A program made the position numbers and the translations under genes. From IMG/VR virus record IMGVR_UViG_2877973648_000003: a DNA stretch of 9,854 nt; one strand, written 5' to 3'. Each line of letters starts with the position of its first letter. The first letter of the stretch is position 1. The notes beneath the pieces were generated by a model, which ran no database searches, was not told the DNA's origin, and saw only the letters and a program-made list of their open reading frames with translations. Shown piece after piece: positions 1 to 9,854 of the stretch. Origin of the DNA: a virus (lineage: Duplodnaviria; Heunggongvirae; Uroviricota; Caudoviricetes).

Positions 1-477
1 TTATTCAAGCAGGCTACGCAACATCCAGGCAGTTTTCTCATGTAACTGGATACGTTGTGTAAGCAGATCTGCTGTGGCTTCATCATTCGCATTATTAACG
101 AGCGGGAACAGGGAGCGTGCAGTTTTAACCACGGTCTCCTGGCCCTGGACAAGATTTTCAATCATGTTTTTTGCTGCCGGAATATCCTTATCTTCATTAA
201 CCGCTGTTAAACGTGAAAATTCATGATATGTGCCGGGCGCGAAGCATCCGAGCGAGCGTATACGTTCAGCGATATCATCAACGGCAGTGGCCAGCTCATT
301 GTATTGATTTTCAAACATTAAATGTAAGCTGTTAAACATGGGGCCAGTTACATTCCAGTGATAGTAATGTGTTTTTATATACAGGGTATAGGTGTCAGCA
401 AGAAGCCGGGACAGGCCGTCTGCAATCTCCACCCGGGATGATTCAGCAATACCAATATCAATGATTTGTTTACTCAT
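1..477 (-). CDS. Dps-family (ferritin-like DNA-protection) protein, 158 aa, apparently host-encoded
   Basis: Complete minus-strand ORF (ATG complement at 475-477, TAA complement at 1-3). The translation has the ferritin-like Dps signature region (HW-N-V-G...F...LH...E) and Dps-like length. SD-like AAGAGG lies upstream of the start. It is not identical to E. coli Dps as I recall it. Confidence 0.8.
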
Positions 478-551: not shown

Positions 552-566
552 AAATTTTTATAATAA
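552..566. other. attL core (lambda-type attachment site, host/prophage junction)
   Basis: AAATTTTTATAATAA followed by GTTGGCATTATAAAAAAGCATTGCTTATCAATTTGTTGCAACGAACAGG matches the recalled lambda attP core and P' arm (lambda core GCTTTTTTATACTAA). The left three bases differ, as expected for a host arm. One C-to-A difference lies in the overlap region (TTTATAA versus TTTATAC). Confidence 0.8.
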
Positions 567-574
567 GTTGGCAT

Positions 575-645
575 TATAAAAAAGCATTGCTTATCAATTT
601 GTTGCAACGAACAGGTCACTATCAGTCAAAATAAAATCATTATTT
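575..645. promoter_or_regulatory. attL P' arm: IHF-type site and Int arm-type binding sites (P'1-P'3)
   Basis: CAGGTCACTAT (612-622), CAGTCAAAAT (623-632) and AAAATCATTAT (about 634-645) fit the Int arm-type consensus. The upstream TTATCAATTTGTTGCAACGAACAGG resembles the lambda H' IHF site. The int stop lies 74 bp from the core, as in lambda. Confidence 0.75.
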
Positions 646-1710
646 GATTTCAATTTTGTCCCACTCCCTGCCTCTGTCATCACGATACTGTGATGCCATG
701 GTGTCCGACTTATGCCCGAGAAGATGTTGAGCAAACTTATCGCTTATCTGCTTCTCATAGAGTCTTGCAGACAAACTGCGCAACTCGTGAAAGGTAGGCG
801 GATCCCCTTCGAAGGAAAGACCTGATGCTTTTCGTGCGCGCATAAAATACCTTGATACTGTGCCGGATGAAAGCGGTTCGCGACGAGTAGATGCAATTAT
901 GGTTTCTCCGCCAAGAATCTCTTTGCATTTATCAAGTGTTTCCTTCATTGATATTCCGAGAGCATCAACATGCAATACTGTTGGGATGGCAATTTTTACG
1001 CCTGTTTTGCTTTGCTCGACATAAAGATATCCATCTACGATATCAGACCACTTCATTTCGCATAAATCACCAACTCGTTGCCCGGTAACAACAGCCAGTT
1101 CCATTGCAAGTCTGAGCCAACATGGTGATGATTCTGCTGCTTGATAAATTTTCAGGTATTCGTCAGCCGTAAGTCTTGATCTCCTTACCTCTGATTTTGC
1201 TGCGCGAGTGGCAGCGACAGGGTTTGTTGTTATATGGCCTTCAGCTATTGCCTCTCGGAATGCATCGCTCAGTGTTGATCTGATTAACTTGGCTGACGCC
1301 GCCTTGCCCTCGTCTATGTATCCATTGAGCATTGCCGCAATTTCTTTTGTGGTGATGTCTTCAAGTGGAGCATCAGGCAGACCCCTCCTTATTGCTTTAA
1401 TTTTGCTCATGTAATTTATGAGTGTCTTCTGCTTGATTCCTCTGCTGGCCAGGATTTTTTCGTAGCGATCAAGCCATGAATGTAACGTAACGGAATTATC
1501 ACTGTTGATTCTCGCTGTCAGAGGCTTGTGTTTGTGTCCTGAAAATAACTCAATGTTGGCCTGTATAGCTTCAGTGATTGCGATTCGCCTGTCTCTGCCT
1601 AATCCAAACTCTTTACCCGTCCTTGGGTCCCTGTAGCAGTAATATCCATTGTTTCTTATATAAAGGTTAGGGGGTAAATCCCGGCGCTCATGACTTCGCC
1701 TTCTTCCCAT
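640..1710 (-). CDS. int: Tyrosine integrase, lambda Int (356 aa)
   Basis: The translation is near-identical to lambda Int as I recall it (MGRRRSHERRDLPPNLYIRNNGYYCYRDPRTGKEF...REWDKIEIK) and has the catalytic R/K/H/R/H/Y residues including the LLGH and Y motif near the C-terminus. It overlaps xis as in lambda and is adjacent to the att site. Confidence 0.97.
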   Translation of the reverse strand: MGRRRSHERRDLPPNLYIRNNGYYCYRDPRTGKEFGLGRDRRIAITEAIQANIELFSGHKHKPLTARINSDNSVTLHSWLDRYEKILASRGIKQKTLINYMSKIKAIRRGLPDAPLEDITTKEIAAMLNGYIDEGKAASAKLIRSTLSDAFREAIAEGHITTNPVAATRAAKSEVRRSRLTADEYLKIYQAAESSPCWLRLAMELAVVTGQRVGDLCEMKWSDIVDGYLYVEQSKTGVKIAIPTVLHVDALGISMKETLDKCKEILGGETIIASTRREPLSSGTVSRYFMRARKASGLSFEGDPPTFHELRSLSARLYEKQISDKFAQHLLGHKSDTMASQYRDDRGREWDKIEIK

Positions 1711-1906
1711 TTCTGATCCTCTTCAAAAGGCTACCTGTTACTGGTCGATTTAAGTCAACCTTTACCGCTGATTCGTGGAACAGATACTCTCTTCCATCCT
1801 TAACCGGAGGAGGGAATATCCTGCACTCGCGTACCCATCGACGAACTGTTTCAAGGCTTCTTGGGCGTCGCTGGCGTGCGTTCCACTCCTGAAGTGTCAA
1901 GTACAT
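1688..1906 (-). CDS. xis: Excisionase Xis (72 aa)
   Basis: MYLTLQEWNARQRRPRSLETVRRWVRECRIFPPPVKDGREYLFHESAVKVDLNRPVTGSLLKRIRNGKKAKS matches lambda Xis in sequence and length. Its 3' end overlaps the int start. Confidence 0.95.
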   Translation of the reverse strand: MYLTLQEWNARQRRPRSLETVRRWVRECRIFPPPVKDGREYLFHESAVKVDLNRPVTGSLLKRIRNGKKAKS

Positions 1907-1930
1907 CGCAAAGTCTCCGCAATTACACGC

Positions 1931-1953
1931 AAGAAAAAACCGCCATCAGGCGG
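1931..1953 (-). terminator. Putative intrinsic terminator (5-bp GC stem CCGCC/GGCGG, 4-nt loop, then six Us on the minus strand)
   Basis: On the minus strand: GCCGCCUGAUGGCGG followed by UUUUUUCUU. The stop codon of the 55-codon ORF sits in the loop. The stem is short, so confidence is moderate. Confidence 0.4.
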
Positions 1954-2113
1954 CTTGGTGTTCTTTCAGTTCTTCAATTCGAATATTGGTTACGTCTGCA
2001 TGTGCTATCTGCGCCCATATCATCCAGTGGTTATAACAGTCGTTGATGTTCTCTGCTTCGATAACCCTGTTGAATGGCTCTCCATTCCATTCACCTGTGA
2101 CTCGGAAGTGCAT
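1946..2113 (-). CDS. Small hypothetical protein (55 aa), positional counterpart of the lambda small ORF next to xis
   Basis: Found by my own translation; it is below the size cutoff of the ORF track. MHFRVTGEWNGEPFNRVIEAENINDCYNHWMIWAQIAHADVTNIRIEELKEHQAA. Same size and position as the lambda 55-codon ORF right of xis. Confidence 0.6.
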   Translation of the reverse strand: MHFRVTGEWNGEPFNRVIEAENINDCYNHWMIWAQIAHADVTNIRIEELKEHQAA

Positions 2114-2124
2114 TTATCATCTCC

Positions 2125-2151
2125 ATAAAACAAAACTCGCCGTAGCGAGTT
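2125..2151 (-). terminator. Putative intrinsic terminator downstream of the 142-aa gene
   Basis: On the minus strand: AACUCGC-UACG-GCGAGUU (7-bp stem) followed by UUGUUUUAU. It lies between the stop of the 142-aa ORF (2197) and the start of the 55-codon ORF (2113). Confidence 0.5.
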
Positions 2152-2196
2152 CAGATATAATTTCCACCAAAGGCAGTAGTTGCTTGATGCTAAGAA

Positions 2197-2625
2197 TTAT
2201 TCAATATCTATTCCTGTAATCTCTTTTATCTTTTTCCTTGCAAAGCCTTTTGCTAGTGATTTTGAAACACTCATAAGTGTACTAATTCCCTCATCCTTAA
2301 AGTTTGTTTTTATAGCTTGCCAGACATCCTTTTGACGTAAGTCAGCAATAAAATCATGCCCTCTTGCTGTCAACCTCAGTGGTACTTCGATCCAACTATA
2401 TCCAACACCTTCCCCTAACGCTTTGGACAATATATGACCGAACCCAGGTTTTCCATCAACCCTGACTATTAATTCGTAGTCACATAATAATCGCATATGG
2501 AAAATAAAATCTTGGTCATATCTATTAAAGCCATTATCCTCTAGTTCACTAAGCATCGTGTCAGGGCCACGAGTTTTTTCGAATGCGATAAGTAGATCTT
2601 TTAGATATTGCTGGTCTAATTTCAT
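2197..2625 (-). CDS. Hypothetical protein, 142 aa, AT-rich accessory (moron-like) gene of unknown function
   Basis: Clean ORF with a strong SD (GGAGGCG) 5-7 nt upstream of the ATG. Base composition is visibly more AT-rich than the flanking lambda-like genes (by eye, not computed). No signal peptide or TM segment is evident. I do not recognise the family with confidence. Confidence 0.6.
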   Translation of the reverse strand: MKLDQQYLKDLLIAFEKTRGPDTMLSELEDNGFNRYDQDFIFHMRLLCDYELIVRVDGKPGFGHILSKALGEGVGYSWIEVPLRLTARGHDFIADLRQKDVWQAIKTNFKDEGISTLMSVSKSLAKGFARKKIKEITGIDIE

Positions 2626-2635
2626 TGCCGCCTCC

Positions 2636-2647
2636 GTGACATGTCAC
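2636..2647. promoter_or_regulatory. Perfect 12-bp palindrome GTGACATGTCAC in the 28-bp gap between the 112-aa and 142-aa genes
   Basis: Read directly from the sequence: the motif equals its own reverse complement. It sits just upstream of the SD of the 142-aa gene. Confidence 0.35.
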
Positions 2648-2653
2648 AGAGAT

Positions 2654-2992
2654 TTATATCATTAATTTTGTTTCGTGCCAGCCTTTGGTCACCCAGCATT
2701 GTGAGTCACCATTACACGGGCATGAATTAACAGGAACTCTCTCGCCGCACTTACCGCACCGTTTTCTGCTGATCGATTTTATACGCCAGCGCACACGTGC
2801 ATCATCCTGGCGGCTCAGTAACGCGATGTACTCACCAAACTCGCAAGGCGCACGCCTGAAGCGACGCGTGGCACAGTTACGCTCCAGCATTTCAATTTCC
2901 TGAGCATCAAGTACAAGCTCCAGCTTACGCATACCGGATGATGCTTGCTTGGCTCTCTGATCGGCTTTGTGCTCTGTTGCTGATTTAGCCAT
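2654..2992 (-). CDS. Small basic Cys-rich protein (112 aa), probable zinc-ribbon; occupies the position of lambda ea8.5
   Basis: ORF with an SD-like AGGAAAA upstream. The C-terminal part has CGKCG...CPC...C spacing typical of a zinc ribbon. Base composition resembles the lambda-like backbone. Any identity with Ea8.5 is positional inference only. Confidence 0.55.
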   Translation of the reverse strand: MAKSATEHKADQRAKQASSGMRKLELVLDAQEIEMLERNCATRRFRRAPCEFGEYIALLSRQDDARVRWRIKSISRKRCGKCGERVPVNSCPCNGDSQCWVTKGWHETKLMI

Positions 2993-3188
2993 TCTGCTTT
3001 TCCTGCATCAGGAGAAAGACAATCATGGCGGCGCGGATACTTCCGGTATCTTTATACGCGATATTCCCCTTCAATGGCACATACAAGAAGAGAGCCATCA
3101 ACAGGAGTGATTGAGGAATCGACAACCAGCAACGCTTAATTATCTATAGTGTCGTATTTGCTTCATAAAATATGGCGAATAACACAAA

Positions 3189-3220
3189 GCCCGCAGCAGC
3201 TCATTGTGCGGGCTTTTCTT
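3189..3220 (-). terminator. Putative bidirectional intrinsic terminator (GCCCGCA...TGCGGGC, 7-bp stem) downstream of the secreted-protein gene
   Basis: Stem 3189-3195 pairs with 3207-3213 around an 11-nt loop. It is followed by TTTTCTT on the plus strand and UUUGUGUU on the minus strand, about 70 nt past the stop at 3286. Confidence 0.55.
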
Positions 3221-3285
3221 ATACCTACTTCCTAGAGATAATTCTATGGAGGCATTAAATCAATACTGTCATTGGTAATATCATA

Positions 3286-3900
3286 TTATCTAAAAGTCTT
3301 TCCACTTTTAACATCTAGGTATATTCTGTTCGACAACGTCATTCCTCCGCAATATGTGAAATAGATGTTTTCACCCTTATTGCTTGATGCCATCCACCCT
3401 CCGATTTCCTTAAAATCGCTTTCCGTGCAGACCCCTTCATTTATTAACTTCCTAGCTGCCGAAGAAAACTCTTTTTTGTATATACGGTAGTCATCAGATC
3501 CTTTGATTAAAGTATCATCTCCGCTCGCATTTTCAGCAGGATCTGATGGCCTTTCACTGCTAAGATCACTAAATTTAACCCATTCTGAAAACTTGCCATT
3601 AACGATTCCATTTTTTCTTGTGCAGGATTTATTACCTTCTTTAATATATTCGCTTTCCCCTCCAACACATGAGGCTGAATATGGCTCAGTTATACGAACC
3701 CATTCACCTTTTTTTTCTAGAAAATCTACGCCTTCCCTGAAAAATAGTTTCCCAGCCACTCCACATTTACTTGAAGGGCAGGTATGTCTTTCCGTTCGAT
3801 CAACAACAACCCATAGTTTTGATTCATTTTTTGCCATTGCCGATGGTATTTGAGATGAGACAATTAACGTAAGCCCTAAAATTAGTATTGATTTTTTCAT
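3286..3900 (-). CDS. Secreted or periplasmic Cys-rich protein, 204 aa, unknown function (AT-rich moron)
   Basis: N-terminus MKKSILILGLTLIVSSQIPSAMA-KNE is a classical Sec signal peptide with an AXA cleavage motif. The mature part is hydrophilic with about 8 Cys. SD AAGGAAA lies 6-7 nt upstream of the ATG. The gene is AT-rich and has its own terminator. It does not match Bor, Lom or Cor as I recall them. Confidence 0.7.
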   Translation of the reverse strand: MKKSILILGLTLIVSSQIPSAMAKNESKLWVVVDRTERHTCPSSKCGVAGKLFFREGVDFLEKKGEWVRITEPYSASCVGGESEYIKEGNKSCTRKNGIVNGKFSEWVKFSDLSSERPSDPAENASGDDTLIKGSDDYRIYKKEFSSAARKLINEGVCTESDFKEIGGWMASSNKGENIYFTYCGGMTLSNRIYLDVKSGKTFR

Positions 3901-4198
3901 TGTAATTTCCTTTTACTTTTTACAAAGCGTTTAATCATGGCTGATTATCTCTAAGTGTAGTAACAGCCTTGTGCGAAACATGTTACCAAATCGCCATTTC
4001 AGTGTATCCGCAGTTAGGCTGCCACTTCAAGGATTCCTAATTACATGGTACGTAAGCGTAAAATCCCGTTGGTTGGCGGGTAATAACTCTGATCAAATCT
4101 CCCTTGTCTTTTGCTCTTACGTATGCAGCTCTTGTGTATTCAACCCAGGCCTCCAGTTCAGCAATACGCTTACTTCCATCCGAGATAACACCTTCTAC

Positions 4199-4450
4199 TC
4201 ACGCTGCTCGTTGAGTTTTGATTTTTGCTGTCTCCAGCTCAACACGCAGTTTCCCCACCGTTAGCGCAATATCCTCGTTCTCCTGGTCGCGGCGTTTGAT
4301 GTATTGCTGGTTTCTTTCCCGTTCATCCAGCAGTGTCAGCACAATCGATGGTGTTACCAGCTCATGGAAAAGGTCCGCGTCAAATCCCCAGTTGTCAGGC
4401 ATTGCCTGCTCTGCCGCTTCACGCAGTGCCTGAGAGTGAATTACGCTCAC
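4199..4450 (-). CDS. ea22: Ea22-like protein, N-terminal segment (83 aa) ending at an in-frame TGA; the reading frame stays open for 53 further codons (4040-4198) to a TAG at 4037-4039
   Basis: MSVIHSQALREAAEQAMPDNWGFDADLFHELVTPSIVLTLLDERERNQQYIKRRDQENEDIALTVGKLRVELETAKIKTQRAA resembles the lambda Ea22 N-terminus as I recall it. After the TGA, the same frame reads VEGVISDGSKRIAELEAWVEYTRAAYVRAKDKGDLIRVITRQPTGFYAYVPCN. Its 3' end overlaps the start of the TraR-like gene. Confidence 0.55.
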   Translation of the reverse strand: MSVIHSQALREAAEQAMPDNWGFDADLFHELVTPSIVLTLLDERERNQQYIKRRDQENEDIALTVGKLRVELETAKIKTQRAA

Positions 4451-4668
4451 TTCGAACCTCTCTGTTTACTGATAAGCTCCAGATCTTCCTGGCAACTTGC
4501 ACAAGTCCGACAACCCTGAACGGCCAGGCGTCTTAGCTCATCTATGGGATCGCCACACTCACAACAATGAGTGGCAGATACAGCCTGGTGGTTCAGGCGG
4601 CGCATTTTTATTGCTGTGTTGCGCTGTAATTCTTCAATTTCTGATGCTGAATCAATGATGTCTGCCAT
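4447..4668 (-). CDS. DksA/TraR-family C4 zinc-finger protein (73 aa), lambda Orf73/TraR-like
   Basis: 73 aa with paired Cys-x2-Cys motifs (CCEC ... CRTCASC) and the size typical of TraR-family proteins. It sits where lambdoid phages carry their TraR homologue in the early-left operon. Confidence 0.75.
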   Translation of the reverse strand: MADIIDSASEIEELQRNTAIKMRRLNHQAVSATHCCECGDPIDELRRLAVQGCRTCASCQEDLELISKQRGSK

Positions 4669-4766
4669 CTTCCATTAATCCCTGAATTGTTGGTTAATAC
4701 GCTTGGGGGTAAATGCGAGCAATAAAAAAGGAGCCTGTAGCTCCCTGATAATTTTGCTTTTCATGT

Positions 4767-5048
4767 TCATCGTTCCTTAAAGACGCCGTTTAACATGCCG
4801 ATTGCCAGGCTTAAATGAGTCGGTGTGAATCCCATCAGCGTTACCGTTTCGCGGTGCTTCTTCAGTACGCTACGGCAAATGTCATCGACGTTTTTATCCG
4901 GAAACTGCTGTCTGGCTTTTTTGATTTCAGAATTAGCCTGACGGGCAATGCTGCGAAGGGCGTTTTCTTGCTGAGGTGTCATTGAACAAGCCCCATGTCG
5001 GCAAGCATAAGCACACAGAATATGAAGCCCGCTGCCAGAAAAATGCAT
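4767..5048 (-). CDS. Small early-left-operon protein (lambda orf61-like); start ambiguous (93 aa from 5048, or 71 aa from the ATG at 4982)
   Basis: ORF in the expected position and orientation. The 5048 start lies 10 nt after the upstream gene stop and has no obvious SD. The internal ATG at 4982 overlaps the TGA of a 5-codon upstream mini-ORF (ATGA), a translational-coupling arrangement. Confidence 0.5.
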   Translation of the reverse strand: MHFSGSGLHILCAYACRHGACSMTPQQENALRSIARQANSEIKKARQQFPDKNVDDICRSVLKKHRETVTLMGFTPTHLSLAIGMLNGVFKER

Positions 5049-5058
5049 TCAGTGGTTG

Positions 5059-5250
5059 TCATACCTGGTCTCTCTCATCTGCTTCTGCTTTCGCCACCAT
5101 CATTTCCAGCTTTTGTGAAAGGGATGCGGCTAACGTATGAAATTCTTCGTCTGTTTCTACTGGTATTGGCACAAACCTGACTCCAATTTGAGCGAGGCTA
5201 TGTGCCATCTCGATACACGTTCTTAACTCAACAGGAGATGCTTTGTGCAT
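5059..5250 (-). CDS. Small early-left-operon protein, 63 aa (lambda orf63-like)
   Basis: 63-aa ORF with a G-rich SD (GGGGGG) upstream. Size and position match lambda orf63. Confidence 0.6.
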   Translation of the reverse strand: MHKASPVELRTCIEMAHSLAQIGVRFVPIPVETDEEFHTLAASLSQKLEMMVAKAEADERDQV

Positions 5251-5368
5251 ACAGCCCCCCGTTTATTATTTATCTCCTCAGCCAGCCGCTGTGCTTTCAG
5301 GGGATTTCTGATAACAGAAAGGCCGGGAAATACCCAGCCTCGCTTTGTAACGGAGTAGACGAAAGTGA

Positions 5369-5593
5369 TCGCACCTACCGGAAACAACGCGCGGCGCTCT
5401 TTACTCGTTCGTCTATAACGTGGGCGCAGGCAATTTCAGAACATCTACTCTTCTTCGCAAAATAAACCAGGGCGATATCAAGGGCGCATGTGACCAGCTA
5501 CGTCGCTGGGCATACGCTGGCGGTAAGCAATGGAAAGGCCTGATGACTCGTCGTGAGATTGAGCGTGAGGTCTGTTTGTGGGGGCAACAATGA
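5369..5593 (+). pseudogene. 3' remnant of an endolysin gene (T4-type/P21-type lysozyme R); N-terminal catalytic part absent and frameshifted upstream
   Basis: In-frame translation ...[71 protein letters not shown] matches the C-terminus of E. coli cryptic-prophage lysozymes as I recall them. There is no start codon. An in-frame TGA at 5366-5368 and a shifted frame lie upstream. The stop overlaps the Rz start (ATGA). Confidence 0.75.
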
Positions 5594-6054
5594 GCAGGGT
5601 AACCGCGATTATCTCCGCTCTGGTTATCTGCATCATCGTCTGCCTGTCATGGGCTGTTAATCATTACCGTGATAACGCCATTACCTACAAAGCCCAGCGC
5701 GACAAAAATGCCAGAGAACTGAAGCTGGCGAACGCGGCAATTACTGACATGCAGATGCGTCAGCGTGATGTTGCTGCGCTCGATGCAAAATACACGAAGG
5801 AGTTAGCTGATGCGAAAGCTGAAAATGATGCTCTGCGTGATGATGTTGCCGCTGGTCGTCGTCGGTTGCACATCAAAGCAGTCTGTCAGTCAGTGCGTGA
5901 AGCCACCACCGCCTCCGGCGTGGATAATGCAGCCTCCCCCCGACTGGCAGACACCGCTGAACGGGATTATTTCACCCTCCGGGAACGACTGGTAATGATG
6001 CAGGCCCAACTTGAAGGTGCTCAGCAATACATAACCGAGCAGTGTTTAAAGTAA
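5590..6054 (+). CDS. Rz: Spanin, inner-membrane subunit Rz (154 aa)
   Basis: [60 protein letters not shown]... matches lambda Rz as I recall it, with an N-terminal TM segment and coiled-coil region. The ATG overlaps the endolysin stop. The ORF track's longer 5578 start is an in-frame GTG upstream. Confidence 0.9.
5810..5995 (+). CDS. Rz1: Spanin, outer-membrane lipoprotein subunit Rz1 (61 aa), embedded in the +1 frame of Rz
   Basis: [24 protein letters not shown]... has a lipobox (VVGC) and a proline-rich mature part. It is fully nested inside Rz in another frame, as in lambda. Confidence 0.85.
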
Positions 6055-6191
6055 AATCTTAACTACAATATGATTCATTTTGATGATTGTTTCATAAGGA
6101 ACAGTGAAGTAAGATCTAAGAGGAGTTAAATTTTATACAGTATAATCATAATATTGCAGCAAGGTGGTTATAATTGAAAGAATATTTAGAT

Positions 6192-7649
6192 ATGAATACA
6201 TCTCATGTAAGAGTTGTTACTCATATGTGTGGGTTCCTGGTTTGGCTCTATAGTCTTTCAATGTTGCCACCAATGGTTGTAGCATTGTTTTATAAAGAAA
6301 AAAGCCTGTTCGTTTTCTTTATAACTTTCGTTATATTTTTTTGCATTGGTGGCGGAGCGTGGTATACAACTAAGAAATCTGGCATTCAATTACGTACCCG
6401 TGATGGGTTTATTATAATTGTAATGTTTTGGATTTTGTTTTCTGTTATTAGTGCATTCCCTTTATGGATTGACTCAGAACTTAATTTAACGTTCATTGAT
6501 GCTCTGTTTGAAGGGGTTTCTGGAATAACAACAACAGGAGCAACTGTAATTGATGATGTTAGTTCATTACCTCGGGCATATTTGTACTATCGGTCACAGT
6601 TAAATTTTATAGGTGGTTTAGGAGTTATTGTTCTGGCGGTTGCTGTATTGCCATTATTGGGTATTGGTGGTACAAAGCTTTATCAGTCAGAAATGCCGGG
6701 GCCATTTAAGGATGACAAACTCACTCCCCGCCTGGCCGATACGTCACGGACACTGTGGATAACTTATTCTTTATTAGGTATTGCTTGTATTGTCTGTTAT
6801 AGACTTGCAGGAATGCCTTTGTTTGATGCTATTTGTCACGGGATTTCCACAGTTTCGCTTGGTGGTTTCTCAACTCATAGCGAGAGTATCGGATATTTTA
6901 ATAACTATTTGGTTGAGCTGGTGGCTGGTTCTTTTTCCCTGCTATCGGCTTTCAACTTCACTCTTTGGTATATTGTTATTAGCAGGAAAACGATAAAACC
7001 TTTAATCAGAGATATTGAACTTCGTTTCTTTCTGTTAATAGCCTTAGGGGTGATCATTGTTACCTCTTTCCAGGTCTGGCATATAGGTATGTATGACTTG
7101 CATGGAAGTTTTATTCATTCGTTTTTTCTTGCCAGCTCCATGCTCACTGATAATGGTTTAGCTACGCAGGATTATGCAAACTGGCCCACGCACACGATAG
7201 TGTTTTTGCTGTCGTCAAGTTTCTTTGGGGGATGTATAGGTTCAACTTGTGGTGGAATTAAGTCACTTCGATTTCTTATACTTTTCAAACAAAGCAAACA
7301 CGAGATAAATCAGCTTTCTCATCCCAGAGCGTTGTTGAGTGTAAATGTAGGAGGGAAGATAGTTACAGATCGTGTAATGAGGTCTGTATGGAGTTTCTTT
7401 TTTCTTTATACTCTCTTCACGGTGTTTTTTATACTGGTGTTAAATGGTATGGGATATGATTTTCTTACATCATTTGCAACAGTGGCTGCATGTATTAATA
7501 ATATGGGATTAGGTTTTGGGGCTACTGCATCGTCATTCGGAGTGCTTAATGACATTGCAAAATATTTAATGTGCATAGCTATGATTCTTGGTCGCCTTGA
7601 AATTTATCCTGTTATTATATTGTTTTCAGGTTTTTTTTGGCGCTCCTAA
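6192..7649 (+). CDS. trkG: TrkH/TrkG-family potassium uptake protein (485 aa from the ATG at 6192; the ORF track extends to a TTG at 6174)
   Basis: Polytopic membrane protein with the repeated GxGG-type selectivity-filter segments (FEGVSGITTTGATV, STVSLGGFSTHSES, GSTCGGIKSLR, ACINNMGLGFGATASS). It is near-identical to E. coli TrkG as I recall it. The gene is AT-rich and lies immediately downstream of Rz/Rz1, the same arrangement as in the Rac prophage. Confidence 0.9.
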   Translation: MNTSHVRVVTHMCGFLVWLYSLSMLPPMVVALFYKEKSLFVFFITFVIFFCIGGGAWYTTKKSGIQLRTRDGFIIIVMFWILFSVISAFPLWIDSELNLTFIDALFEGVSGITTTGATVIDDVSSLPRAYLYYRSQLNFIGGLGVIVLAVAVLPLLGIGGTKLYQSEMPGPFKDDKLTPRLADTSRTLWITYSLLGIACIVCYRLAGMPLFDAICHGISTVSLGGFSTHSESIGYFNNYLVELVAGSFSLLSAFNFTLWYIVISRKTIKPLIRDIELRFFLLIALGVIIVTSFQVWHIGMYDLHGSFIHSFFLASSMLTDNGLATQDYANWPTHTIVFLLSSSFFGGCIGSTCGGIKSLRFLILFKQSKHEINQLSHPRALLSVNVGGKIVTDRVMRSVWSFFFLYTLFTVFFILVLNGMGYDFLTSFATVAACINNMGLGFGATASSFGVLNDIAKYLMCIAMILGRLEIYPVIILFSGFFWRS

Positions 7650-7734
7650 TATATGGCTGATTTATAATTGTGAGTTTAATATTATATTGACTCACTCATT
7701 GATCCAATACCTAACTTTACCAGCAACACCTCCG

Positions 7735-7770
7735 CCCCCAGTAGCACTGGCTGCTGGGGTGCGTTTTATT
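7735..7770 (+). terminator. Putative intrinsic terminator downstream of trkG
   Basis: CCCCAG...CTGGGG stem (7736-7741 pairing with 7754-7759) followed by TGCGTTTTATT. The loop is long at 12 nt, so confidence is modest. Confidence 0.35.
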
Positions 7771-7786
7771 CATAAAGCAAGGCTGT

Positions 7787-8218
7787 ATGAGCGAGAAATT
7801 AAAGATAGTCTATCGCCCATTACAAGAATTGTCACCGTATGCGCACAACGCCAGGACGCACAGTACTGAGCAGGTGGCACAACTGGTAGAAAGTATTAAG
7901 CAATTCGGCTGGACTAATCCGGTGCTGATTGACGAAAAGGGCGAAATTATTGCGGGTCACGGTCGTGTTATGGCGGCTGAAATGCTCAAAATGGATTCTG
8001 TTCCGGTCATTGTTCTGTCTGGCCTGACGGATGAGCAGAAAAAGGCGTACCGCCTGGCAGATAATCGCCTACCGATGAATGCTGGCTGGGATGAAGATCT
8101 GTTGCGGATGGAGCTGTCGGACCTAATCAATGCTGATTTTGATGTCTCCCTGACAGGCTTCGGCCCGACAGAAATTGATGAACTGTTGACGGATGTTTTG
8201 CCCGGTATCGGGCCTTAA
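7787..8218 (+). CDS. ParB-like nuclease-domain protein (143 aa), probably a C-terminally truncated fragment
   Basis: N-terminal ParB/Srx-type domain (YRPLQELSPYAHNARTHS...IIAGHGRVMAA...YRLADN). Its TAA stop lies 3 bp from the convergent tfa stop with no terminator between them. Prophage ParB-like proteins are usually larger. Confidence 0.65.
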   Translation: MSEKLKIVYRPLQELSPYAHNARTHSTEQVAQLVESIKQFGWTNPVLIDEKGEIIAGHGRVMAAEMLKMDSVPVIVLSGLTDEQKKAYRLADNRLPMNAGWDEDLLRMELSDLINADFDVSLTGFGPTEIDELLTDVLPGIGP

Positions 8219-8221
8219 TTT

Positions 8222-8749
8222 TTACTCTGGTTTTTGTGGCCATTCAGGATTTGCCGTATCCACACGGCTGACCAGAACACTGTAGCGTTCCCATGCTTCC
8301 AGTCGTGTGCGTTCCTCGTCTGTTGCCATATTCAGCCTGACAGCGCGTTCCAGCGGTTGGATGACTGATTCAGCTTCGGAAAGCAATGCGGCCTTTTGTG
8401 ATTCGGCCTGTTGTTGTTGCTCGTCTGCCGTATAAATCCGTTTAACCACAGCTCCGTCCCTAAACATCCACTTACTGGAATCATCAGCGCAGCGGTTGGC
8501 TGTAATATCTGGAACCTCAACGACGCTATAACCTTCAGGGTTAAGCGTGGAGGCATCTTTGGTGATGGCGACAATAATATTATTTGCATCGTAAACAATC
8601 TTTATTGTGTCTGGCTGAAAGTTTTTCACTTCCTCATACCAGTTTTTTCCGTCTTCGGACCATAACCAGATAACATCAAAATTCTTTGTTAGCTGATATT
8701 GTTCTTTTGTTTTTGGATTTCCAGACTTAATATTTTTTAAATGCTGCAT
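8222..8749 (-). CDS. tfa: Tail fibre assembly protein Tfa (175 aa)
   Basis: Tfa-family translation. It lies directly downstream of the tail-fibre cassette with a 3-nt gap, the typical stf-tfa arrangement. Confidence 0.85.
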
Positions 8750-8752
8750 AAA

Positions 8753-9715
8753 TTACACCTGTACGACGTTATACCATGTGCCATTGATGTATTTTTGTAT
8801 TGGTCTGAATACTGCCGGATCATCGCCATCAACTGCACCGATAATGCCAAGCCCCGTAATTGCATGACCTGATTTCTCATACATCACGCCTTTTTGCATA
8901 GTCTGAACAACACGTGTACCAAGTCGGACATCTCTCACATAACGTGAGTCAAAATTACCATAATTGCCGGGAATAACTTGCGCACCGCAAAGCCAGTTGC
9001 CATTGTTGTCCATGTACGCCTGACCATCGGTGCCATTGGCTGTCCTTGAGTTATTAATCATGTAGATGCCAAATTGCTTATTCCCCAGTCCACCAATCAT
9101 AAATTTGCGATCAGCGTGGTCCTGACGAAGTAATGCCTGCGCACCATCGGTGGATACCGCATTGCGTCCCAAAATAACATTCTGGTCACGCATATGAATC
9201 CACATGCCGGTACTACTGTTAATTGCAAAACGGTTTGCAAATATATCCCCTGTAACATCAAGACCATGCCCCATGCTTATCCGACCAGTTCTGAGATTAA
9301 GCGTAAAGGGGCGTAGTGGCCCTATATCACCATTTTCTCCCTCATTCTCTCGTGTAGGGATGATATGCAGGCATTCTTCAGAACGACGAAAAATAGCACC
9401 AAAAGATGAATTAAATATCCTCAGTGCATTGACTGTCGATATTTTTACTTCACTGCTGAAAAGGGCTTTAACAAGGACAGACAAAGCATCCCATTTAAGA
9501 GTCATCAGGTCTTTTGTTGTGGTGCTCTGGCGGCTTCTCCATTTGAAATATTCATTGCCGTTGTCGCCTGTTTCAAACCACATGTATGAATCAGTGTCGC
9601 TGTCGGCATTATTTTTAAAACCAATCTTTGCCCAGTCAGTATTTCTAATCCAGGCAAGGATTGAGTCGTTTTCAAAAGTAAGCCCACCGGACAAGGTATC
9701 GCCATTCTTTTGCAC
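8753..9715 (-). CDS. stf: Side tail fibre C-terminal variable cassette (320 codons), without its own N-terminal constant region
   Basis: Tail-fibre-like C-terminal sequence (NGDTLSGGLTFENDS..., Gly/Asn/Thr-rich). The open frame begins at a GTG (9713-9715) only 10 codons after an in-frame TAA that lies inside the crossover site. It is immediately adjacent to the pix-like site and tfa follows. This is the Sv'-U' arrangement of Gin/Pin/Cin invertible segments. Confidence 0.8.
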   Translation of the reverse strand: MQKNGDTLSGGLTFENDSILAWIRNTDWAKIGFKNNADSDTDSYMWFETGDNGNEYFKWRSRQSTTTKDLMTLKWDALSVLVKALFSSEVKISTVNALRIFNSSFGAIFRRSEECLHIIPTRENEGENGDIGPLRPFTLNLRTGRISMGHGLDVTGDIFANRFAINSSTGMWIHMRDQNVILGRNAVSTDGAQALLRQDHADRKFMIGGLGNKQFGIYMINNSRTANGTDGQAYMDNNGNWLCGAQVIPGNYGNFDSRYVRDVRLGTRVVQTMQKGVMYEKSGHAITGLGIIGAVDGDDPAVFRPIQKYINGTWYNVVQV

Positions 9716-9739
9716 GGCGTTCCTGGCCCTGTTTACCGT

Positions 9740-9765
9740 TTCCTGTAAACCGAGGTTTTAGATAA
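9740..9765. other. Gin/Pin/Cin/Hin-family DNA invertase crossover site (gix/pix-like)
   Basis: TTCCTGTAAACCGAGGTTTTAGATAA is a near-exact match to the recalled gix site TTCCTGTAAACCGAGGTTTTGGATAA. It consists of imperfect inverted 12-bp half-sites around a central dinucleotide and lies between the fibre cassette and the invertase start. Confidence 0.75.
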
Positions 9766-9819: not shown

Positions 9820-9854
9820 GTGCTGATTGGCTATGTAAGGGTATCAACAAATGA
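9820..9854 (+). CDS. pin: Serine DNA invertase (Pin/Gin family), first 11 codons only; continues beyond the window
   Basis: GTG-CTG-ATT-GGC-TAT-GTA-AGG-GTA-TCA-ACA-AAT translates to (M)LIGYVRVSTN, the conserved N-terminus of Pin/Gin/Hin invertases including the catalytic Ser region. SD GGGAG lies 7 nt upstream. The TGA formed by the last three bases of the window is out of frame. The call rests on very little sequence. Confidence 0.6.
   Translation, partial: MLIGYVRVSTN

Follow-up and report, generated by a model that had tools for sequence, protein, structure and literature searches.

A short-homology deletion scar in a degraded lambdoid prophage and a recurrent TA endpoint in its orf60a-like gene

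The usual picture of prophage decay is one of random deletions on which selection then acts. In the formation of lambda bio and gal transducing phages, and in spontaneous deletions between short repeats, unrelated sites are joined without added DNA, and hot spots for such events are known; the classic short-homology events usually use 4–13 bp of homology. Nested deletions extending from a fixed point are also known, both next to insertion sequences (IS) and at arrested replication forks (Ter sites). The prophages DLP12 and Rac of Escherichia coli K-12 carry deletion scars as well. Here we report on a 9,854-nucleotide stretch of DNA (hereafter the window; IMG/VR virus record IMGVR_UViG_2877973648_000003), which is a degraded lambda-Int (lambdoid) prophage. 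Its early-left operon on the minus strand breaks off within an orf60a-like gene (DUF1317 family) and is joined, at positions 5376–5379, to the 3' part of the endolysin gene rrrD on the plus strand. We analyzed how this junction arose, and found that one of its endpoints, the dinucleotide TA at 5376–5377, recurs in deletion junctions of other lambdoid prophages.

The two arms of the junction were found within a single prophage of E. coli WP8-S18-CRE-02 (NZ_AP022245; hereafter WP8), in the same order and orientation. Window 555–5382 is 99.9% identical to the WP8 prophage and window 5376–8207 matches it at 100% without gaps, both on the same strand; in the coordinates of the WP8 locus (L005), window 4705–5382 corresponds to positions 1–679 and window 5376–8207 to positions 13994–16825. 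The gene order of the WP8 prophage starts with int, xis ... DUF1382, DUF1317, exo, bet, gam, kil, cIII ... sieB, continues with a cI-like repressor gene, cro, cII, O, P, ren, ninB, dam, ninE, ninX, rusA, ylcG and Q, and proceeds through lipocalin and ybgA genes, IS1, essD, rrrD, Rz, trkG and a ParB-like gene to the terminase, portal, capsid and tail genes. Since both arms are collinear in one natural prophage, a single deletion explains the arrangement in the window, and we consider it very probable that the junction is the scar of one internal, short-homology deletion in one lambdoid prophage. Phage Chlobot (PP925838) is 99.87% identical over window 900–5382 and then runs on into exo, bet and gam, and in many further strains the right arm is 100% identical and rrrD is intact. 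Chlobot and the WP8 prophage are the closest intact relatives of the arms, and both keep the 13 kb that is absent from the window. The WP8 prophage lies at the canonical lambda attachment site attB, between ybhC and ybhB/bioA, whereas the window copy lies beside a Dps-family gene at a variant core.

A three-way alignment placed the deletion junction at TACC, 5376–5379, a 4-bp repeat that is present in both parents and of which one copy was kept. With the crossover marked by a slash, the left parent reads ...GAAAGTGATCGCACCTACC/CGGATATTATCG (shorter form ...GATCGCACCTACC/CGGATATT), the right parent reads ...CAAAGTCGATATACC/GGAAACAACGCG (shorter form ...AAGTCGATATACC/GGAAACAA), and the window at the join reads ...GAAAGTGATCGCACCTACCGGAAACAACGCG (shorter form ...GATCGCACCTACCGGAAACAA). 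The high-scoring segment pairs of the two arms overlap at 5376–5382, the parents share seven of eight bases with a 1-nt slip (TACC[C]GGA), and the left-arm matches in phage records all end at window 5382. The join connects codon 10 of the orf60a-like gene to nt 281 of rrrD of the same prophage, with the loss of codons 1–9/10 of the former gene and codons 1–94 (the first 280 nt) of the latter. We found no IS, filler DNA, att-like core or gix sequence at 5376–5379, and the homology at the join appears from its length to be too short for RecA.

An earlier reading of the window, made from the sequence alone (the sequence-only reading), had regarded the arrangement as a deletion junction rather than a native gene order, and had proposed to look for microhomology at the join and for longer versions of the element. 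The TACC repeat and the undeleted WP8 relative, which carries both arms collinearly, bear out that interpretation. The same reading had placed the breakpoint between about 5251 and 5370; the actual site lies a few bases outside that range, yet inside the examined 5251–5593. The breakpoint is not in a spacer but inside the orf60a-like gene, whose DUF1317 remnant, filling 5251–5375, had been missed. The 'opposite orientation' of the two arms is the normal divergence of the early-left and late operons of a lambdoid prophage.

Measured against WP8, the deleted interval comprises 13,319 bp, a figure that includes an IS1 which the real ancestor may have lacked; the true size of the deletion was probably about 12.5 kb. 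This IS1 lies inside the deleted interval, at neither endpoint. On the early side, the loss covers the 5' end of orf60a, exo, bet, gam, kil, cIII, sieB and the repressor/cro/cII region, and beyond these O, P, ren, the nin genes, rusA, Q, the holin gene and the 5' end of rrrD. The sequence-only reading had correctly listed the recombination genes, N, the immunity region, the replication genes, Q and the holin gene as missing between the two points, but the head and tail genes, which it had added to the list, were removed together with the terminase genes by a separate junction at 8207/8208 and not by the one at 5376–5379.

The deletion was probably made by RecA-independent illegitimate recombination at short homology, in which ends are joined or strands annealed once the DNA has been broken. 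Most likely it started from a nick or break that recurs at this one position, TA 5376–5377, the broken end then being joined to a distant TA. The product would have survived since it could neither be induced nor kill the cell; the remnant presumably persists because N, the replication genes, Q, the holin gene and the N-terminal half of the endolysin have been lost.

Two other origins of the gene order were weighed against a single deletion. The identity of window 5610–8040 to K-12 Rac (99.3%), in an element whose integrase is of the lambda type and not IntR, would agree with a fusion of two resident prophages, in which a lambda-like one gave int to orf60a and a Rac- or DLP12-like one gave R-Rz-trkG. 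We regard this as very improbable, as a WP8-type prophage at lambda attB already combines both arms at 99.9–100% identity in the right order and orientation, many strains carry a 100% identical rrrD-Rz, and an inter-prophage event would have deleted or inverted chromosomal DNA too; a lambda-like plus Rac-like fusion became unnecessary once one prophage with both arms had been found. The mosaic character claimed in the sequence-only reading thus holds for the lysis cassette, which is not lambda-like, but calls for no fusion of two elements, since the natural WP8-type phage was already a mosaic that included this cassette and trkG. The gene order might also be native to some functional element of small size, for instance a satellite or a minimal phage, and its conservation at 100% in 21 records, plasmids included, would suit such an element. 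When window 4900–5800 was compared by the basic local alignment search tool (BLAST) with 50,697 phage records, none of the 397 matching records covered at least 80% of it and none spanned the join. On this result a native phage order was rejected, and it supports the deletion; moreover, the DUF1317 gene (without codons 1–9/10) and rrrD (without codons 1–94) are both truncated at the join, no replication, regulatory or structural genes are left, and the conservation goes back to a single event that a larger mobile segment, associated with IS26, has carried along. A native element is hence hardly credible. An IS-mediated deletion was rejected, as there is no IS at the join and the IS1 of WP8 is at neither endpoint, and so was Int-mediated recombination at a secondary attachment (att) site: the hot spot, CACC-TA-CCCGG, has no TTTATAC-like overlap, and the core of the element is at 551–566. 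Prophages whose integrase is an unrelated protein of 387 aa have junctions at the hot spot, too. By itself, the window junction is an ordinary short-homology deletion scar of a cryptic lambdoid prophage, with the DLP12 and Rac scars of K-12 as its nearest counterparts.

Among 5,426 complete E. coli genomes, the exact junction was present in 21 records (12 chromosomes and 9 plasmids) at 99.8–100% identity, many of them from wastewater. The occurrence of one junction, near-identical in all 21 records, indicates a single inherited event. The whole remnant, together with its flank of Dps, ArsR and flavin adenine dinucleotide (FAD)-oxidoreductase genes, was 100% identical on plasmids of 145–454 kb and on chromosomes (L001, L002). 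The remnant segment is bounded or cut by IS26, IS110 and IS5 and comes mostly from wastewater and food-plant E. coli. It thus moves as part of a larger mobile segment that is associated with IS26.

The TA at 5376–5377, in codon 10 of the orf60a-like gene, is common to about 30 different deletion junctions of lambdoid prophages. The deletions range from 1 to >30 kb (loci L008, L009, L010–L023, L024 and L028–L032), and the prophages occupy three attachment sites (ybhC; argU/fimZ; proA), with integrases of two unrelated kinds. Two remnants, PI24 and EC21Z-048, which we first met as partial two-piece matches among the complete E. coli genomes, have the same left endpoint as the window, ...GATCGCGCCTA/AGCAATGG with a right end at about nt 429 of rrrD in PI24, and ...GATCGTGCCTA/TCTGCATC with a right end at about nt 36 of Rz in EC21Z-048. 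We also searched a collection of 5.8 billion proteins with the intact 60-aa DUF1317 protein, which yielded 117 representatives of 90% identity clusters. The results showed that 25 different N-terminal replacements diverge directly before G11 in these representatives, and that L, I and V occur at residue 10 in the proportions that a random base in front of TA would give (type P0015 has S). Elsewhere in the gene (~180 nt), junctions were few and scattered, amounting to about nine types versus about 30 at the one TA, which, counted per position, puts the TA in excess by two to three orders of magnitude. A pattern scan of metagenome contigs, which is independent of gene calls, gave five loci, two of them new types, with ends in ydaT and in an ANT-domain gene; at the DNA level, the junctions of PI24, EC21Z-048 and the two metagenome types are at the same TA.

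Twenty contexts could be resolved, and all of them were direct-orientation deletions within a lambdoid prophage; there were no inversions. On the right they end in bet, gam, sieB, ydaT, P, P/ren, ninB, dam (twice), the ANT-domain gene and the ninE region, as well as upstream of rusA, inside rusA, in Q, rrrD (twice), Rz (twice), the baseplate/tail region and a tail-fibre gene. The parental sequence of the partner carries TA at the crossover in 15 of the 16 cases where it could be recovered, mostly with nothing else in common; longer sharing was seen for TACC in the window and in type P0019, and for TCCGG[G/T]TA in the bet junction. Joining of TA to TA is not universal, as the K-12 Rac ynaK/ydaY junction uses AA and the terminase deletion of EC21Z-048 uses GCCCTT. 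Viable phages showed no boundary at the hot-spot base, their natural mosaic boundary being 25 nt away at the exo stop codon. On the lambda map, the hot spot corresponds to about 31,325 (row H168); lambda itself has kept the site, which opens the hot spot to direct tests in its lysogens. We found no description of the hot spot in the literature on orf60a, on DUF1317 or on a 'TA dinucleotide' with prophage deletion; as far as could be found, the recurrent base-precise endpoint is undescribed.

A few further observations concern the same gene and its partners. A second hot spot before F26 of DUF1317 (proteins P0092 and P0103) was discarded, as both cases are at the starts of draft contigs and were judged unreliable. 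Two draft contigs (L025 1–45 and L026 1–50) begin ~40 nt before the hot-spot junction and are without the next 45 nt of DUF1317, the partner being joined at GGGTA/TTTCCC instead; they represent either a recurrent secondary deletion between two GGGTA/TA sites or a contig-end assembly artefact. The TA at window 5610–5611 is the partner site of hot-spot type P0076 (MMQITRAEI/GAITF) as well as the end of the Rac ydaW/rzpR deletion, a double use that may be coincidence or may mark a second recurrent site.

The fixed TA, the TA at the partner, the restriction to deletions, the possible retention of either side and the independence from the integrase together fit a position-specific nick or a 2-nt-staggered break, and these facts do not fit ordinary slipped mispairing. 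A possible explanation, to which we give a little less than even weight, is a site-specific nick or staggered cut at N/TA/N in the 5' region of orf60a, after which either end is ligated to a distant TA. The cutter might be a nuclease, a topoisomerase, an HUH nickase or a homing-type endonuclease, and the ends might be healed by a pairing of 2 nt, either in alternative end joining or upon run-off of a fork at a nick. Such a cut would account for a base-precise endpoint in about 30 independent events, for the partner TA in all but one of the recoverable cases, for the retention of both TA sides (as illustrated by DLP12), for the exclusive finding of deletions and for viable phages without a boundary here; no candidate enzyme, however, matches the site. 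Selection or ascertainment could in principle mimic a mutational bias, if only deletions ending exactly at this TA survived or were annotated: the 25 replacement types are detectable only via an open reading frame (ORF) called across the junction, and all deletions remove genes that are harmful upon induction. This is very unlikely, since selection cannot tell apart endpoints that are a few bases from each other in a small non-essential gene, junctions elsewhere in the gene are indeed detected (about nine types against about 30), and DNA searches that do not depend on gene calls give the same endpoint.

Nested one-directional deletions from a fixed end are the classic signature of IS-adjacent deletion, and targets of the IS5 family centre on TA. 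A transposase acting on a pseudo-end was therefore also weighed, as the retained ...GATCGCACCTACC resembles the right end of IS5 (...ATTCGCACCTTCC), with 11 of the 16 terminal bases matching the IS5 end in locus L013, and an 'adjacent deletion' of the IS type could start there. This possibility is decidedly unlikely. The junction is 2 nt inside the predicted pseudo-terminus in most products, many parental alleles (CGCGCCTA, CGTGCCTA) fit IS5 less well, and the partner sites fit the IS5 target YTAR no better than chance by our own count. Intramolecular transposition should yield both deletions and inversions, whereas none of the 20 resolved events is an inversion, and the mirror product in DLP12 keeps the other side. 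There was no IS end at the window junction or at the other hot-spot junctions examined. Returning to a specific cut, we tentatively propose, well short of even confidence, that an unrecognised site-specific activity nicks or cuts at the codon-10 TA of the orf60a-like gene (about 31.33 kb on the lambda map), that it breaks lambdoid prophages there again and again, and that the breaks are healed TA-to-TA. Such an activity could be host-, plasmid- or phage-derived.

Several points weigh against this account of the junction and its hot spot. None of the known enzyme sites that were compared with the hot spot fits. WP8 is a relative and not a proven ancestor, having an IS1 within the deleted interval and a truncated tail region of its own. 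The 4-bp microhomology at the window junction is just modestly beyond chance (P about 0.016 for at least 4 bp at a random blunt join, by our own calculation). Finally, the count of junction 'types' leans partly on gene calls and on 90% protein clusters.

The comparison with enzyme sites included E. coli topoisomerase I, whose in vivo motif has C four nt upstream of the cut within TA (PMC9352719). The hot spot has A at this position on the plus strand (C-A-C-C-T/A) and G on the minus strand (C-G-G-G-T/A), so that the motif is absent on both strands. A quasi-site for a serine invertase (Pin/Gin/Cin) found no support either: the gix-like site of the window itself combines a GA core with arms of AAACC/GGTTT, TA is all that the hot spot has in common with its partners, and there are no inversions. 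Likenesses to GGTGCG-containing sites (the dif XerC arm, R388 IR2 and the RSF1010/F oriT nic regions) were not adopted, the known cleavage position being off the TA in every case. With regard to hairpins or cruciforms, the hot spot folds no better than shuffled sequence, and only a tL3-like hairpin 35–57 nt away is significant. No terminal inverted repeat matching the hot-spot end was found within 3900–5420.

The window junction alone shows how one lambda-like prophage became a harmless remnant, which keeps int/xis, the exo-xis genes, the spanins and trkG and is now carried by plasmids and chromosomal islands in E. coli that are mostly associated with wastewater. If a specific break is the cause of the recurrent endpoint, it would provide a mutational mechanism of prophage domestication. 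E. coli would then have a dedicated route, frequently taken, for disarming lambdoid prophages, and long-known scars of K-12 would be explained, with the DLP12 scar and the window element being among the products of the cutting activity.

The left part of the window begins with a Dps-family gene (1–477, minus strand), which is followed by the prophage-host boundary beside int. The core at 551–566 reads CAAATTTTTATAATAA, as compared with the canonical lambda core CTGCTTTTTTATACTAA; it has one mismatch in the 7-bp overlap, and beyond it lies unrelated DNA with the Dps-family gene. Judged by this core, Int seems to have inserted the element at a secondary att site of a mobile island or plasmid, and not at gal-bio. 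The lambda-type integrase of 356 aa (640–1710) and the excisionase Xis (1688–1906) are encoded on the minus strand, as are a TraR/DksA-type gene (4447–4668) in the run of 'exo-xis region' genes and a 93-aa ORF (4767–5048). Further decay was noted in this arm, namely a frameshifted, truncated Ea22-like gene at 4199–4450 and a UmuD-like 'DNA repair protein' fragment at ~3025–3132, both labels being annotations in identical records. The same decay is present in the otherwise intact WP8 prophage and thus predates the 13-kb deletion.

The minus-strand, orf63-like gene that the sequence-only reading had starting at 5250 is an intact DUF1382 gene at 5059–5250 (Pfam PF07131, E = 7.9e-32, full length). 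It is the final complete gene of the early-left ('exo-xis') block, and its product is the same as that of the intact parental prophage (WP_000548514.1). The orf60a-like DUF1317 remnant next to it in the operon (5223–5379, minus strand; Pfam PF07026, E = 2.7e-32, profile positions 10–60 of 60) consists of codons 10/11–60 and the stop, that is, the 3' five-sixths of the gene. The parental gene has 183 nt (519–701 in L005; 4324–4506 in the Chlobot locus L004), and the remnant is without the native start and the first 10 codons (MKHPHDNIRV), which overlap the exo stop. In the annotated 54-aa ORF at 5223–5387, the antisense of the lysozyme DNA supplies a new TTG start and three residues (L/M-F-P; translation LFPV/...). 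A terminator-like hairpin with a T-rich tail lies inside the remnant at 5319–5341 on the minus strand (terminator scan; DNA fold z = -2.4); by its position on the lambda map, we take it to be probably lambda tL3.

On the plus strand, the 3' remnant of rrrD, a P21 R-type signal-anchor-release (SAR) endolysin gene, occupies 5380–5593 with codons 95–165 (71 codons) and the stop. It matches Pfam PF00959 at profile positions 67–125 of 125 (E = 4.7e-23) and is 100% identical to L005 13994–14211, within an intact 498-nt gene whose RrrD product matches PDB entries 4ZPU ('Lysozyme RrrD') and 3HDE with E about 1e-109. The start-less 3' part of a P21/Rac-type lysozyme gene running into Rz, as described in the sequence-only reading, was thus recovered (5376/5380–5593), but it is not frameshifted: bases 5378–5593 form a single open frame ending in ...CLWGQQ and the stop, in keeping with the gap-free match of the right arm to a prophage with intact rrrD. 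Although in frame, the remnant is missing a start codon, the SAR domain and all of codons 1–94 of 165. In the GH24 endolysin family the catalytic residues sit in the N-terminal third. By its sequence, the remnant belongs to the RrrD/P21 family and is without everything that function requires.

The lysozyme stop overlaps the start of Rz (ATGA), which encodes an intact i-spanin (5590–6054, plus strand; Pfam PF03245, E = 3.5e-53) that is the same as the protein of the parent (WP_000092276.1). The o-spanin lipoprotein gene Rz1 lies inside Rz in the +1 frame (5810–5995, plus strand; Pfam PF06085, E = 2e-19). Downstream of the lysis cassette, as in Rac, is the potassium-transporter moron trkG (6192–7649, plus strand; Pfam TrkH, E = 9e-144), whose product is again the same as that of the parent, and it is followed by a truncated ParB-like (ynaK-type) gene on the plus strand. 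No replication, regulatory or structural genes remain in the window.

A second, independent deletion junction at 8200–8207 joins the ParB-like gene to the middle of an invertible tail-fibre segment of the Mu/P1 type. Its left parent reads GCCCGGTA/CAGG (L005 16825), its right parent GCCCGATA/TCGGGCC (the U/U' intergenic region of phage PhiR68_1), and the window GCCCGGTA/TCGGGCC, with a microhomology of seven of eight bases. Only half of the invertible segment survives (U' at 8222–8749 and S'v at 8753–9715). A gix/pix-like invertase crossover site, TTCCTGTAAACC-GA-GGTTTTAGATAA, is present at 9739–9764, and the start of a pin-type recombinase gene then follows at 9820–9854.

The Rac prophage of K-12 contains the same Rz-Rz1-trkG-ParB-like block as the window (rzpR-rzoR-trkG-ynaK; 99.3% identical over the stretch given above), and its lysis cassette has likewise been cut from the left by a deletion (ydaW/rzpR). 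In Rac, the cut is 20 nt inside Rz, at the TA in CGCGAT-TA-TCTCCG (window 5610–5611; L003 13200/13201), and the partner is ydaW, not orf60a; compared with Rac, the window retains another 218 nt, comprising the 3' end of rrrD and the start of Rz. Rac has IntR at ttcA and a recET early region, whereas in the window Int is of the lambda type and is accompanied by Xis and lambda-like exo-xis genes. The window is thus not a Rac prophage, as the integrase, attachment site and early region differ and only the Rz-trkG-ynaK block is common to both.

The xisD/exoD junction of K-12 DLP12 is a lambdoid deletion scar with its crossover at the same orf60a TA (L024 2573–2574, MG1655 about 566,073). The product reads ...GTGAGGTA/CCCGGATATTATCG, the xis-side parent ...GTGAGGTA/AGGAG, and the partner parent also has TA. 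DLP12 is the mirror image of the window: it keeps the exo side and has lost the orf60a/orf63 side, whereas the window keeps the orf60a side, and its integrase and attachment site (argU) differ from those of the window. The exoD/peaD junction of DLP12 is also a TA-only join, GGGAGGTA/CGAG, from GGGAGGTA/AACG and GGTTTA/CGAG. Like IS-adjacent and Ter deletions, the hot-spot deletions have one fixed endpoint, a variable partner and direct orientation, but there is no IS at the junctions, and we recognised no Ter-like or protein-binding site at the TA. They differ from the classic short-homology events in that TA is all that most of the joins have in common, and one endpoint recurs at the identical base in many lineages.

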